The notes below the pieces were generated by a model. The model did not search any database. It saw only the letters and a program-made list of their open reading frames with translations, and was not told the origin of the DNA. A stretch of DNA of 64,000 nt from a virus. Lineage: Duplodnaviria > Heunggongvirae > Uroviricota > Caudoviricetes. The stretch spans positions 338,312 through 402,311 of the IMG/VR virus record IMGVR_UViG_3300032167_000002. One strand, given 5' to 3'. Made by a program: the position numbers and the translations under genes. Positions 20,176 through 62,352 of the stretch are shown piece by piece. Position 1 is the first letter of the stretch. Each line of letters begins with the position of its first letter.

Positions 20176-20379
20176 ATCGTTCTCCTTTCAAATTTCTTGA
20201 GATTTTTCTTGTAGTTATATTATACCATTATTTTTTTGAAAAATCAACTCAAATTTCTCTGATCGGAATAATTAAATTTATTTGGCCCAAAGAAAAAAAA
20301 AAACATACATGAGATTTTTCATATTTTATTAGAAATAGAATTTAACTCTTTTTATTTTTGAGAGAAAGGAAGATTTTAT

Positions 20380-22455
20380 ATGGGTGCTTTAAAAATTAAT
20401 GTATCTAACCTCGATGGTTAGAGTTGGCCTTTGGTACTTCATCAAACATTAAATTACAATTCGACTGGATGGGGTCCAGGCATAAAATTTTTAAATGCTA
20501 GTGATAGTTCAGTTAAATGGGCTGGTATTGGTGGAATGGCTAGCAGCGGTTATGCGAATAATAATGATTTAGTATTTTACACTTAGGCAGAACCTCGTTT
20601 TCGCATGAATAGTAATACTTTTTATCCAATAGGAGATGCCATTTATAATTTAGGTGGACCAACTGTTAGATGGGCTGATGTTTATGGTATTAATTTTCAT
20701 GGAGATTCTGCTATATTAAAAGCTGAATATGCTTTAAGATTTACAAACATTAATACAGATGCATATTTAGCTGCTAATTCATCAGATGGATTGTTTTTGG
20801 CAGTTTACGGGTCTGGTAATAGTGGAAAAAGTATTTATCTTGAGACCTATAACACTGATATATATCATCGTAAAAATGGTACTAATTATAAAATTTTAAC
20901 ACCTAATAATGGAGGTTTCTACACACTCACTCGGGAAGATGTTGGAAATTCTTATAATATTGATAATTTGACTTTTAACGGATTTTTTGAAGTACGTGCA
21001 TCAAATGAAGTGACAGTTTCTGGTGCAAAACCCTGGGATGGATATTACGGATGTGTAAATTTTCATGATGGTGTGTGTAAAATGCAAATTGCAGGAAGTA
21101 GTTAGTACGGATTTGCAATTAGAGGAATACAAAAACCTAATGCTACTTTAACTGATATTCCATGGCATACTTTACTAACTTCTGCCAATTATAATTTATA
21201 CTCTCCAACTTTAACAGGCGGAGGAGCTTCTGGCACTTGGGGTATTAACATTACTGGTGCATCAGCTCTTATTTATAATGGAACAGCATGGGGAGGATTT
21301 TACGCAGATGCTGATACACATATTTTAGAACTTGGATATTTTCAAGTTGGTTCTGAATTTTAGAGTTGGGTGTTATGCGTTAGCAGTTCTTTTTGGGGAA
21401 ATTAGCATTCTTCATCTGATTTAATTACAGTATAGAGTGATACTAATGGTGGTTTTGGTTATTCTACTTCTAGAGTGCAAATAGGAGGAAAAATAAAACG
21501 AACATTTTATTTATATAAAGATGCTACAAATAATAGATTATATTTATATGTTGCAGTATATGGTGGAAATAGTTATGGTTATTGGGATGTTTCTTTATTA
21601 AATGGTAGATATGTAAATAATTGGGTTCATACTGCACAATTTAATACAATTTTACCAAGTGATTCAACTGAAATAAGTGAAGAATCTTTTAAACCACAAT
21701 CTCATAGTCATATTAACATAGGTGATGGAACTATGAGTATTGTAGCAGAGAAAAATAATGAAATTAATTTCGGTGGCACTAATAACTATATAGATTCAAC
21801 AATTTATATGGGATATCGTGCAACAGATGCTAGACCTATTCCAACTAAATTTGTTTTTGGAGGACCAAATGGTGATGCGACTATTCATGCTAATTATTTT
21901 ACAGGTACCGCAAATTATGCTACCACGGCAGGATAGGCTTCTACAGCTAATAGACTTACATCAACCACTGCGATGTGGGGCGAACCTGGCACTCACAATG
22001 GAAAATGGGTAAAAATTTGCCAAGAGACTCTTGGGGGATGGCGAAATGCTCGGTTAGTATTAGCAATTTCATCTAGATATTAGGGCACTGGAATTTTTAG
22101 TCTAACTTTAGATGTTAATAGCGCTGGTTTGGCCCCTCTTGTTGGAAGTTTAAACTATAATGGCTCTTGCCCTTATGGAATTGATGATTTTAAAGCCTAT
22201 TATAATGAGAGTACTGGTAATTTTACCATGTGGATGAAATACGTTAATTATTCTTAGGCAAACATTACTGTTTTAGAATCTTATCAATGGTATTCTTCTA
22301 TTTAGAATTATGGATTTTGGGATACTATTCCTTCTGATGTTGGATACGAAATAGGTATTAAAGTTAATGCTGGAGATACTTGTCACAATTTTGGTGCAAA
22401 TCAACCTAGTGGTAATGCTCGAGTTGGCACGCTTTATTATTAGACTATTGGATAA
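20380..22455 (+). CDS. Tail fibre protein, 692 codons with at least 10 in-frame TAG codons, ending at a TAA.
   Basis: An AAAGGAAG ribosome-binding site precedes the ATG at 20380. The frame is continuous through ORF-track fragments 20605..21105 and 21475..21936, which are all in frame 1. An NYNLYSPTLTGGGASGTWGINITG motif is shared with the fibre at 25781..27217. Confidence 0.7.
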
Positions 22456-22468
22456 GGGAGTAAATATT

Positions 22469-23062
22469 ATGCAAAGTGGAAATATAGCACAACAAGATAA
22501 TTATGTTCCATGTCACTCTAATGGCAGAGATGACCGGCGATGGTTCGGATATGAAACTGAATACTCTGTTTTTTATGCTTGCGGTATTCCGTTTGTAACT
22601 CCGTCTAGTGGCAAAACAACAAGCTTAAGCATTACTTTTGATGCTTATGATAAATATAGCGGCTCAGCAACTTCTTAGAAAACTTATAATGTACTTATTA
22701 CATCTACAAAAATTACAAGTTTTGACACTTTAAAAAAATAGACTCGCACAACTACAGTAGTTGTTCCAAGAACCGTATATTAGGCTACTTCAACAGTAAC
22801 TTTTAATATTTAGAATTTATCGTTATCACCTAATACTACTTATTATTTTTATATTTGGTATCCAGATGCAGTATGGTCTTGTTATCTTATGACCAGCTGT
22901 AGCATTTATGCAACTTATGATGGTAATACGGTATGGATAAATACAGATGGGACAAACTGGCAACGAGCATTACCTTGGATTTGTGTTGATGGTACTAATT
23001 GGAAACAATGCATTCCTTGGATATGCGTTGATGGTACTAATTGGAAATAGTGTGGCGGATAA
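22469..23062 (+). CDS. Tail fibre-associated protein carrying a tandem WICVDGTNWK repeat, with 6 in-frame TAG codons.
   Basis: A GGGAGT ribosome-binding site precedes the ATG at 22469, and the gene ends at the TAA at 23060-23062. Confidence 0.5.
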
Positions 23063-23347
23063 TTTAAATTGGTCAAACCTCATTTGTTATTTAATATTAA
23101 AATTTTATAAATAATACGGAATAAAATCCGAATTTTAATGAAGTAAAGGAGAATTAAAAATGCCTACCAATGCAGAATTATTAGCTCGTATTGAAGTACT
23201 TGAGCGCCAAATTAAAGAGCAAGACGCCTATATTAAAAAAGTAAAAGAATGGTCTGATTTAAGCGACCATTGGTTACAAGAAATGATTAATAGCCTTACT
23301 GAATGTGTAGATAAGTTGATGGGCATTGATCATACTGGAGAGGAAGA

Positions 23348-60204: not shown

Positions 60205-60323
60205 ATCGGATTTTTCCTTTCTTATTATTTTTCTTTATTTCTTACATATATATTATAACATTTTTTTTATAAAAAATCAATAAAAAAGAAAAAAGGAGAT
60301 AGATATAAAAATCTATCTCCTTA

Positions 60324-61421
60324 TTATAAGGTTAATGTATAGGTAGGTGTTGCTGATCTTGCTTTAAAATTTATAGCGGTTGGAACATAATTACCATATA
60401 GAGTTGCAATAGAATAAAAATAAGTGTTATTGCCACTGGTTTTAATTGAAATGGTATATGAAGTCTCAGAATTCCAAGTTACTCCAATACCAACAACGCC
60501 ATTATTTGTAACGCCACTAGGTCTTGCTAAACTACTTAATTTAGTTATTGTACTTCTCCAGTGAGCACTTGTAATTGCTATAAGGTGACTTGATGATTGT
60601 GTATAATAATAATCGCTTCCTGCAAACAGTATTACGGCAGAGGGCTAAGTAGAATATGATACATCAATAGTGGCGATATCATACCATCCATTTGTAGTAA
60701 TACCTGTTGCATTACTACGCGTATTTACTCCATGCTCATAAAAAGTAGCAGAAACTCCTCCTGTGCTAGTTATACCGCCATTTACATTTAATCCGCCGCT
60801 GCCAATACTAACCAATCCACCATCACCATTTAAATGTAAAGTTGTTGGAGTTGTTCCATTAGACTTTGACATAATTTCATTTCCATCAAATTCTAAATGC
60901 TATGCAGTGGAAGCTCCACCAACTATTAAAGCTGGCTTCTTATCTGTTGTACCAGCAGCATCAGTAGTTCTTGATAAAGTTAATGTTCCAGTAACCGTAC
61001 CACCACTTAAGGGTAAATAGGAATGAGTATGATTTGTCGTAGTAGCGATTGATAAATTACCACTGCCATCAAATGTCCCAGAGCCAGTTACCGAACCAGT
61101 TAAAGAAATTGTGCGAGCTGTTGCTAATTTAGATGCAGTAGAGGCATTGCCATTAAAACCATTTGCACTTAAAATTCCAGTTTTACCATTCCAAACTAAA
61201 AATTTAGCTTCTCCATTTGGGTTTTTATCTGCTGTATGAATTCTAATTGTTTCATCGTTGTAGGCATCTATATGATAAATATATGTATTATTTTTACTTG
61301 CAATTGTTAAAGTACCGCCCTCTCCATCTTCCCACATAGAAATGCCACCAGATGAGTTAGTATTATTTACTTTAATTGAACCTGTGGCGCTTATAGTACC
61401 ATTGACTTGCAGTGTTCCCAT
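60324..61421 (-). CDS. Tail fibre-like protein with 2 in-frame TAG codons. The ORF track splits it into 60900..61421 and 60645..60872.
   Basis: It has the late leader AAGGAAAGGAGATATTTTATAT-ATG and contains NGNASTASKLATARTISLTGS. The fragments share one frame, and the gene ends at the TAA at 60324-60326. Confidence 0.6.
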
Positions 61422-61608
61422 ATATAAAATATCTCCTTTCCTTCTTACATTTCTAATTATATATAAAAAATCATATATGAGTTTTTTTTTTTCTCTTGGC
61501 CAATTTGCTTTAAAAAAATTCTTTGATCCTATTAATTTTTTGTAGGCCAGAATCGAATAATATTTATTTATAAATTTTTATATTAAATATAGAAAGGAAG
61601 GTGTTTTT

Positions 61609-62352
61609 ATGAACCTAATGGTTATTTCAAAAAAACATTCATATTTAATTAATAATTTAGATTTATCAACAATTGACGTTGGTAGCATCATTTTCGATTT
61701 AAATGAAAAGAAAATGTATATTATGTTTACTCCAGGTAATTTGACTGAAATTACTGCTGAAACAAAAATTGTTGAAACATTAGAAGAATTAGTAGACGCA
61801 ATTGCTTTAGGTGGAAATATTACTATTACTCAAAATATTGATGCTGAAACTGGCTTTATAGTTACAACTAACAGTACAATTACCAACAATAGTATAATTT
61901 CTATTCCCGAAGACGTAGAAGGTAATGGAGTATTTATGGTAACAGCAGGTGTTTTAACTTTAAATGGAAATGGTACTTATAACGGTGTTGGTAAGAATGA
62001 TTGGAATATGGCTTTATGGGCAAAAGAAAATGGTAAAATCGTAATTAATGATGGCTATTTTACTAACGAGGGTGCAACCGCGAATGTTGATTCCGAGCAC
62101 TTTGATTTAATTTATGCTTCTGGCAATGCTCAAATTGAAATTAATGGCGGCGAATTTAAGTGTCAAACTCCTGCATGGACTTTGAACATTAAAGACAAAG
62201 ACCGTGCGACCGCAAGCATTATTGTTAAGGGTGGTAAGTTCCACGGCTTTGATCCATCTAATTGCGCAAGCGAAGGTCCAAATACTAATTTTGTAGCTCC
62301 TGGTTATAAAGTTGTTGAAGAAAATGGCGTATTTATTGTAATGCCTGAATAA
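61609..62352 (+). CDS. Gly/Asn-rich protein with predicted beta-helix character, possibly tail-associated. It has no TAG codons.
   Basis: GNITITQN...NSTITNNSII...LTLNGNGTYNG is present. A terminator hairpin follows at 62365-62400. Confidence 0.35.
   Translation: MNLMVISKKHSYLINNLDLSTIDVGSIIFDLNEKKMYIMFTPGNLTEITAETKIVETLEELVDAIALGGNITITQNIDAETGFIVTTNSTITNNSIISIPEDVEGNGVFMVTAGVLTLNGNGTYNGVGKNDWNMALWAKENGKIVINDGYFTNEGATANVDSEHFDLIYASGNAQIEINGGEFKCQTPAWTLNIKDKDRATASIIVKGGKFHGFDPSNCASEGPNTNFVAPGYKVVEENGVFIVMPE

Follow-up and report, generated by a model that had tools for sequence, protein, structure and literature searches.

Phage T4 late genes (gp55, gp33 and the gp45 clamp) and the cascades of SPO1 (gp28, gp33/34) are temporal classes served by promoters without a −35 element, at which phage sigma factors, highly diverged or minimal, redirect the host core RNA polymerase. 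T4 late promoters need only TATAAATA, with no upstream element. In Gram-positive phages, the RinA/ArpU/LtrC family and Alt of TP901-1 activate structural and lysis operons whose promoters are poorly used by host sigmaA, and RinA/ArpU-type phages usually have one late promoter placed before one long operon. Phage Mu late promoters keep the −10 hexamer but lack a typical −35; overlapping or replacing the −35 region is an imperfect dyad of 16 bp, centred at −43.5, to which the C activator binds as a dimer (PMC2582627). The RpoD-like sigma factors of jumbo phages are near-complete, cellular-type proteins acquired secondarily by the phages (PMC7824862). Temporal promoter classes, activator-dependent late promoters without a −35 and phage RpoD-like sigma factors are thus already known (PMC2582627; PMC7824862). 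Here we describe a repeated motif, termed class B, in a 64,000-nucleotide stretch (positions 338,312 to 402,311 of IMG/VR record IMGVR_UViG_3300032167_000002; hereafter the window) of a large uncultured gut phage in which the TAG stop codon is read as an amino acid. We estimate at roughly 55% the probability that the motif is a late promoter class that lacks a −35 and needs a factor bound to a dyad at about −44, in a family of TAG-recoded phages. The literature searched contains no description of the motif, of its bidirectional use or of its link to autonomous fibre cassettes within a TAG-recoded lineage, and the main survey of recoded phages makes no mention of promoters or sigma factors.

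The window holds five class B sites (GGCC at 20284+, 25700−, 25697+, 61501− and 61545+; c1 to c5 in Table 1), all built alike: a TTTGGCCAAA-like dyad comes first, then an A/T-rich stretch and a T-run, and finally a weak −10-like hexamer and TAGAAAT. Twelve further sites were collected from seven related contigs, namely L006 (one), L059 (three), L061 (three), L063 (two) and the IMG/VR contigs L075, L076 and L078, whose sites came from a pattern search in which the GGCC-TATAGA spacing was already fixed. Over these 17 sites on 8 contigs, the first G of GGCC lies 41-46 nucleotides (nt) from the T of TAGA (mode 44), whereas the start codon follows TAGA at anything between 19 and 50 nt. Conservation is limited to two blocks, the dyad and a start-proximal block. 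The dyad, TTTGGCCAAA, is GGCC with T at −3 to −1 in 14-15 of the 17 sites and A at +5 to +7 in 12-16 of them; it varies between GGCCAGAA and GGCCTAA, and a site in L075 has GGTC. This last site (∼6500-6560, minus strand) keeps the layout with GGTC in place of GGCC (CTACGGTCTAAAT...TTATTATAGTAG) and lies upstream of a 1415-amino acid (aa) tail gene. Outside the window, L059 and L006, the A-rich stretch that follows the dyad is not a pure A9-11 tract as it is there, and the ∼20 nt between it and the T-run are not conserved. The start-proximal block is composed of the T-run, a weak −10-like hexamer (tAtAtT) and TAGA(A/T). With the sites anchored on TAGA, whose four columns are conserved by construction, the T-run occupies −15 to −11 and position −9 is A in 13/17 sites; the AT-rich DNA fits several −10 registers.

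The loose pattern GGCC-N37-42-TAGA was not enriched on its own (5 observed vs 3.8 expected), and therefore a cross-validated matrix was used instead. This two-block matrix was trained solely on the nine sites of L006, L059, L061 and L063, against a deliberately AT-rich background. The five best hits in the window were the class B sites (scores in Table 1), and the next hit, at 12.2, was a GGCC box read from its reverse face. The maxima over 200 shuffles (500-nt blocks, dinucleotides preserved) averaged 10.9, with 16.0 as the 95th percentile and 22.4 as the highest value. A matrix made from all 17 sites found no further site in 625 kb of partly redundant family sequence; one marginal extra hit was again such a reverse face, that of a GGCC box next to an L059 early promoter. 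An earlier note on this DNA had set the motif apart from a sigma70-type cassette, located it at these places and tied it to fibre genes, points that are supported here. That note had also proposed a 40-mer, AAAAAAACTCATATATGATTTTTTATATATAATTAGAAAT, as the conserved core. The 40-mer has exactly two exact copies, at 25650-25689(−) and 61449-61488(−), against none in 100 shuffles, and over 46 nt c4 matches c2 at 98% identity. The copy at 20283-20336(+) is ∼79% similar to these, and those at 25697-25744(+) and 61545-61596(+) resemble the others at the ends only, in the GGCC box and the −10-like/TAGAAA block. The real core is instead the GGCC dyad plus the T-run/−10-like/TAGA block at a fixed distance. 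The c5 site has a homologue in L059. Exact searches of IMG/VR and JGI metagenome contigs for a 33-mer, a 31-mer and the leader described below gave no match, the JGI collection apparently lacking the samples in which this phage occurs, and a search of IMG/VR with TGGCCAGAAGAAAAAAA returned nearly only coding 'MARRKK' matches and one real site, that of L006.

The divergent arrangement around GGCC, also part of the earlier note, is confirmed. At 25.7 kb, TGGCCA (25696-25701), within the palindrome TTCTTCTGGCCAGAAGAA, is common to c2 and c3 and hence to two divergent late genes. At 61.5 kb, two separate GGCC boxes stand back to back, 47 nt apart, and at 20.28 kb the late site stands back to back with a promoter of the early type (class A, described below). 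One GGCC serves two divergent late genes in L059 and L061 as well as in the window. Where an early promoter is the neighbour, it lies 17, 22 or 40 nt from GGCC, with no fixed spacing. The leader between motif and start codon, GAGAGAAAGGAGATTTTATAT, was found to be less uniform than the earlier note had it: it is exact before two genes, has one extra base at 20358-20379, and is absent or shortened at both 61.5-kb sites. In the form TTGAGAGAAAGGAG(A)TTT, a leader precedes fibre or giant tail genes at window positions 20358-20379, 25612-25632 and 25760-25780, and also in the distant relatives L061, L063 and L078. No significant RNA structure was detected in the conserved fibre leader (z −1.0 to +0.5), which is probably just a strong ribosome-binding region common to late genes.

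All 17 sites lie immediately upstream, and in the sense direction, of fibre, tail or structural-type genes. In-frame TAG codons are present in 14 of these 17 genes; those without TAG are the gene at 61609-62352, its L059 homologue (249 aa) and a 441-aa gene of L061. In the relatives, the genes behind class B sites encode fibres, fibrous proteins of 441 and 781 aa, a 190-aa protein with WNGSSW repeats, the homologue of the 61609-62352 product and a 196-aa membrane protein. Sites also occur within tail modules after the tape-measure gene, before genes for proteins of 1516 aa and at least 500 aa (the latter cut off where the locus ends), one of them with 41 TAG. No class B site was found before a DNA-metabolism gene in the scan of the 625 kb of family sequence. 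Each class B unit of the window ends in a strong, mostly bidirectional terminator, and a layout of terminator followed by promoter was seen at L061, L063, L075, L076 and L078.

Early genes are served by another element, class A, in which a terminator hairpin is followed by TTGATT-17 nt-(TGn)TATAAT-ATATA-TAGAAAG, nearly invariant over ∼45 nt. Cassettes or cassette-like copies number 13-14 in the window; they lie on the minus strand and all precede TAG-free genes. At the five class B sites of the window, a scan with the sigma70 consensus finds no −35 hexamer. The best −35/−10 pairs at class B sites match 6-9 of 12 positions, with 2-4 of 6 in the −35, against 10-11 of 12 at early promoters; the exception is site L063a, which carries TTGACA but a poor −10. 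The −10 hexamers of class B are weak and without TGn, and the T-run stands where early cassettes have TRTG. The TAGAAA block is common to both classes. In class A, TAGAAAG starts 5 nt after a perfect TATAAT, which would make the A of TAGA the usual +1; because the block is the same, we infer the A or G of TAGA as the probable start of class B transcription. From such a start, the dyad centre would lie ∼43-45 bp upstream (about −43.5 to −44.5), which would place it about one helical turn upstream of the −35 position.

Since the box is symmetric, two divergent genes can share one box, and the spacing is fixed towards late genes and variable towards early promoters, we favour a model in which the dyad is bound by an activator. 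A sigma70-family holoenzyme, with either host SigA or the SigA-like sigma factor of the phage, would read the −10 block, and a dimeric, phage-encoded DNA-binding protein on the GGCC dyad would substitute for the missing −35 contact. Because the dyad is symmetric, a single bound dimer could activate two divergent late genes. Class B would in this manner drive self-contained fibre or tail units, each made of a promoter, its gene(s) and a terminator.

The closest analogues are the C-activated late promoters of Mu (Plys, PI, PP and Pmom) and its Mor-dependent middle promoter. Like them, class B has a −10-like hexamer and no typical −35, and the dyad centre, for the predicted start, would fall at ∼−43.5 to −44.5. 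Unlike in Mu, the dyad is different and shorter (TTTGGCCAAA vs 16 bp), one dyad serves divergent promoters, the host is probably a Firmicute, as the promoter style and the sigma suggest, the phage has its own SigA-like sigma, and no Mor/C homologue was seen in the window. We do not claim membership of the Mu type for class B. The locus differs from RinA/ArpU systems in having many small autonomous units, each with its own site, and no ArpU/RinA-like protein was detected in the window. In contrast to the sigmas of T4 and SPO1, the sigma found here is ∼55% identical to SigA and has the −35-reading region intact. It also stands apart from the RpoD-like sigmas of jumbo phages and cyanophages, as it has no region 1.1, carries an invariant Tyr and Asn and belongs to a TAG-recoded lineage with SPbeta-like replication genes.

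Several points weigh against a dyad-activated late promoter class. The sites are not independent (c2 and c4 are near-identical, and those of L061 and L063 are homologous), and in the three IMG/VR sites the spacing was predetermined by the retrieval pattern. The T-run upstream of GGCC is in part the U-tract of the preceding terminator, so that the dyad may be shorter than it appears. Placing the dyad at −44 depends on where we infer transcription to start. Neither Mor/C nor another clear activator was found by Pfam and PHROG scans of the window proteins or among the Pfam calls for overlapping contigs; the only DNA-binding candidates in the window are two winged-helix proteins (Table 1). Finally, the class may be specific for fibre and tail genes, rather than a late promoter in general.

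The sigma factor of the phage is central to the first of the alternatives. The earlier note had placed its gene at 49434-50354; a sigma-70-family gene is indeed present, but its start is probably at 50336, since the homologues are 300 aa long. Pfam Sigma70_r1_2, r2, r3 and r4 all score above their cut-offs in the protein. Its best models are those of Firmicute SigA/RpoD, which it matches below their cut-offs (326 bits vs 572 for the best NCBIfam RpoD model, aligned from model position 74 of 370), and by score it is not a true housekeeping sigma. The identity to SigA given above comes from alignments. The best hit in a GenBank phage is 53% identical, and the GenBank phage records hold no close relative of this sigma; tblastn detects RpoD-like sigma genes in Microcystis phage MaAM05 and Synechococcus phage S-CBS3. 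Three substitutions relative to SigA are invariant in 11 aligned family members, and we take them to be W433Y, T440S and H455N (E. coli numbering). His455 helps to read the TG of an extended −10, and an intact region 4.2 of sigma70 predicts recognition of a TTGACA-like −35. The open reading frame (ORF) 50326-50673, upstream of the sigma gene, was considered as a partner protein and dropped; the related contig L065 lacks this ORF.

A dedicated late sigma that reads the motif alone, with no additional DNA-binding factor, is a possible but unlikely explanation. The gene belongs to the core of the family (homologues in >120 clusters at ≥77% identity, on contigs of up to ∼200 kb). It is transcribed from a class A cassette, which in L065 lies directly upstream of the sigma gene, and its product would hence be available before the late genes. 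The family-invariant Tyr (W433) and Asn (H455) leave some room for an altered specificity, and the late T-run replaces the early TRTG. However, region 4.2 (VTRERIRQ..KLR) and region 2.4 (RQAISR; Gln/Arg) match the SigA chains of PDB 8x6f, 7ckq and 7l7b apart from the three substitutions, so that a TTGACA-like −35 is expected; the late sites lack it, and at least 13 early cassettes match well. Furthermore, GGCC lies ∼10 bp too far upstream for a −35, and it is symmetric and used in both directions, unlike a sequence read by sigma region 4. The sigma, which the earlier note took for the obvious candidate reader of the motif, is on these grounds predicted to recognize TTGACA/TATAAT. Judged from its sequence, it fits the TTGATT-17-TATAAT early cassette at least as well as the late sites. 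It may still be the −10-reading partner at late promoters. A combined version, in which the SigA-like sigma, with its altered extended −10 and wedge residues, would be a dedicated middle/late sigma and both it and the dimeric GGCC-dyad factor would have to accumulate before the −35-less promoters fire in both directions, we regard as rather unlikely.

The invariance of the class A cassette (for example at 36013-36047, 41850-41884, 49364-49398, 50706-50740 and 57654-57688, minus strand) extends to the 17-nt spacer (TTTATAAAAAAATATGA) and the segment after the −10 (ATATATAGAAAG), far beyond what SigA needs. Perhaps it is this uniform early cassette that the phage sigma truly targets. Another, less uniform set of TTGAC(A/T)-17-TATAAT promoters was also observed, e.g., at 10862-10900, 12907-12945 and 19767-19795.

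If host SigA alone used the sites as weak constitutive promoters (a −10 plus a UP-like A-tract), the timing of the fibres would be set by TAG decoding only. Both −10-like hexamers and upstream A-tracts are present, and the lysis operon already pairs a sigmaA-type promoter with TAG codons. Nevertheless, this leaves unexplained an invariant GGCC at a fixed distance where the A-tracts diverge (L061, L063 and L075-L078), as well as the three motif-preceded genes that have no TAG; in addition, the −10 hexamers are weak and lack TGn. We judge it quite unlikely.

The relation between TAG codons and the motif bears on the suggestion of the earlier note that late transcription and late TAG translation give two layers of timing control. 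Fibre genes 1-4 have both a class B promoter and TAG codons (2-11 each). On the other hand, the genes of the lysis operon (PhoH-like, 841-aa endolysin, holin-like) and a GIY-YIG gene at 9217-10206 have TAG without the motif, and 61609-62352 has the motif without TAG. The suggestion is thus borne out partially, TAG content and the class B motif being coupled only in part. In the lysis region (27283-32260, minus strand), a strong terminator-like hairpin at 30191-30218 lies immediately before the ribosome-binding site of the endolysin, which has the same GAGAGAAGGGAG leader as the fibres; the hairpin may place the endolysin under read-through or antitermination control. The GIY-YIG gene (minus strand) carries 12 in-frame TAG, the highest density in the window, and has no class B site. 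Its product has an N-terminal membrane/coiled-coil part, the gene stands among TAG-free early genes behind a terminator hairpin, and the L054 homologue also has 12 TAG.

Initiation at the ...TATAGAAAT block by a non-canonical phage RNA polymerase, YonO-like or single-subunit and encoded outside the window, is very unlikely. The start block TATAGA is similar to T7/SP6-type promoters at their 3′ end, and the phage has the SPbeta-like replication genes YorF and YorH. In SPbeta, transcription of the late genes falls to YonO, for which no promoter has been defined (PMC5467207). Nonetheless, neither the 64-kb window nor any fetched locus encodes a polymerase of this kind, and in the early cassette the TAGAAA block comes after a textbook sigmaA promoter, which argues for initiation by an ordinary holoenzyme. 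That the motif is no promoter but a fibre-cassette duplication junction, a cassette-exchange recombination site or a terminator is scarcely tenable: the sites do border low-GC islands that are missing from relatives, the island content differs in L059 and GGCC is palindromic, but the sites are always in sense and at a short distance from a start codon, TAGA keeps its spacing while the intervening sequence diverges, and sites also lie inside tail modules after the tape-measure gene. As an intrinsic terminator the GGCC palindrome was rejected, since the run that follows it on either side is of A, not T, and it was not among the calls of the terminator scan. Also set aside, after comparison by eye, were readings of the motif as a sigma-H, sigma-E, sigma-K, sigma-54 or CodY-box site, because their sub-motifs (AGGAAA, CATACA/CATATATG and TGGC) each occur in a subset of the sites only.

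The coordinates of the features are collected in Table 1.

Table 1. Features of the window that bear on the class B motif. Spacing, first G of GGCC to T of TAGA in nt; score, matrix trained on relatives only.
Feature	Position	Strand	Description
Late promoter c1	20284..20336	+	GGCC box 20284-20287; 11-A tract; −10-like CATATT/TTTTAT; TAGAAAT 20330-20336; spacing 46; score 27.6; leader reaches ATG at 20380
Late promoter c2	25650..25700	−	GGCC 25697-25700; TAGAAAT 25650-25656; spacing 44; score 36.6
Late promoter c3	25697..25744	+	TAGAAAT 25738-25744; spacing 41; score 35.8
Late promoter c4	61449..61501	−	GGCC 61498-61501; TAGAAAT 61449-61455; spacing 46; score 17.4
Late promoter c5	61545..61596	+	GGCC 61545-61548; TAGAAAG 61590-61596; spacing 45; score 26.7
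Fibre-like gene 1	20380..22455	+	691 aa; 11 in-frame TAG; first of its unit
Bidirectional terminator	23770..23807		Between fibre-1/holin unit and fibre 2; 16-bp stem; T-runs on both strands
Tail-fibre gene 2	23823..25610	−	595 aa; 5 TAG; phrog_23676 tail fiber protein, E = 5.6e-46
Fibre-like gene 3	25781..27217	+	478 aa; 6 TAG
Bidirectional terminator	27232..27269		End of fibre island
Terminator	60293..60322	−	After fibre gene 4; directly followed by early-type promoter 60252-60280 of the major-vault-protein-like gene
Tail-fibre gene 4	60324..61421	−	365 aa; 2 TAG; tail-fibre PHROGs; homologues with MGT(L/F)(Q/K)VNG N-terminus
247-aa protein	61609..62352	+	No TAG; terminator 62357-62393
sigmaA-type promoter	32226..32254	−	TTGACT-17-TATAAT; TAG-containing lysis operon; kept in relatives
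Early cassette	50695..50741	−	Terminator + TTGATT-17-TGnTATAAT-ATATA-TAGAAAG; drives operon with sigma gene
Phage SigA/RpoD-like sigma	49434..50336	−	Regions 1.2, 2, 3 and 4; no region 1.1; family core gene
Winged-helix candidate 1	7113-7475	−	HTH_27, 23.1 bits (cut-off 22.2); behind early-type promoter
Winged-helix candidate 2	10266-10541	−	Weak MarR/z-alpha-like match, below cut-off; early-type promoter; kept in L054 and L056

The class B genes of the window lie in two islands of low G+C content, at 20.25-27.3 kb and 60.3-62.4 kb (30-36% vs 40-53% elsewhere in the window). In four relatives (L050, L054, L056 and L057) the gyrB promoter directly follows the holin-like gene, and therefore the first fibre cluster of the window is an island. 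The fibre-1 unit also includes 22469-23062 (197 aa, with WxxxW repeats) and a holin gene at 23354-23758 (phrog_13712). Fibre 3 has an 82-nt repeat in common with fibre 1 and a C-terminal ...GEIFYKT motif, as found in fibre homologues. A search of IMG/VR with the fibre-2 protein returned no relatives. The second island has two genes in the window and three in L059. No family match was obtained for the 61609-62352 protein, in which repeats seen by eye are beta-helix-like and suggest a protein of the receptor-binding or depolymerase-like kind. Each fibre unit resembles a movable module of promoter, gene and terminator.

Next to the first island, the gyrB promoter and the first 24 gyrB codons are duplicated (17095-20250, minus strand). 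The ORF 19843-20175 begins with MSDYGVKDIKTLEGIEAIRLRPGM, a start that is 96% identical to the N-terminus of L050 gyrB, and then diverges; it is followed by a GIY-YIG homing endonuclease (18993-19745) and a full gyrB (17095-19014) with a different N-terminus. In relatives the promoter-gyrB arrangement is uninterrupted, and the duplication looks like the scar of a homing-endonuclease insertion.

Minus-strand genes predominate in the window and serve DNA and nucleotide metabolism, with products such as gyrase/topoisomerase, NAD-dependent (nicotinamide adenine dinucleotide) ligase, thymidylate synthase, DnaB and the SPbeta-like YorF/YorH; further genes are for NAD salvage, RNA repair and a protein with a major-vault-protein shoulder domain. 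The NAD and RNA-repair genes are densely packed at 36900-48300, 51195-52004 and 57724-63984 (minus strand). Their NAD part comprises NAMPT-like, NAD synthase, Sir2, NADAR, isochorismatase/nicotinamidase-like and cytidylyltransferase-like proteins, and the RNA-repair part an RNA ligase, Thg1 (named from an overlapping contig) and a TROVE-like DUF2828/DUF7788 protein. The shoulder-domain protein, of 826 aa, is a member of the same gene set. The long ORFs at 20.25-27.3 kb and 60.3-62.4 kb and in the lysis region are visible only with TAG readthrough. TAG aligns with Gln: codon 5 is TAG in fibre 2 of the window and in the L059 fibres, and CAA in fibre 4 of the window (MGTLQVNG). No transfer RNA gene was found in the window, and an Rfam scan of it matched no family. 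Two large parts of the window had no megablast match among GenBank phages, and the GenBank phage records contain no close relative of this phage. An identical copy of the protein encoded at 266-1369 is present on ENA contigs of 181 and 201 kb, and the contigs of this family of TAG-recoded phages measure ∼80 to 200 kb. Those of the relatives were retrieved separately by the early cassette, the PhoH-like protein, the fibre protein and the sigma.

Promoter classes had so far been undescribed for stop-codon-recoded gut phages. Together with the uniform early cassette, the late motif allows the genes of uncultured phages to be split into temporal classes from sequence only, and fibre or host-range cassettes can be recognized by their own promoter and terminator. 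The motif also lets the code switch and the transcription switch be compared on the same genes, and here they overlap only partially. Two biochemical questions are raised: which protein reads the GGCC dyad, and what the role of the phage's own SigA-like sigma is. If the combined version, with a dedicated middle/late sigma and a dyad-bound factor, is true, a switch made of sigma plus activator would be used alongside the TAG-to-Gln code switch to gate the fibre and tail genes, and units of the form 'dyad-promoter-gene-terminator' could let fibre cassettes move between positions and genomes.

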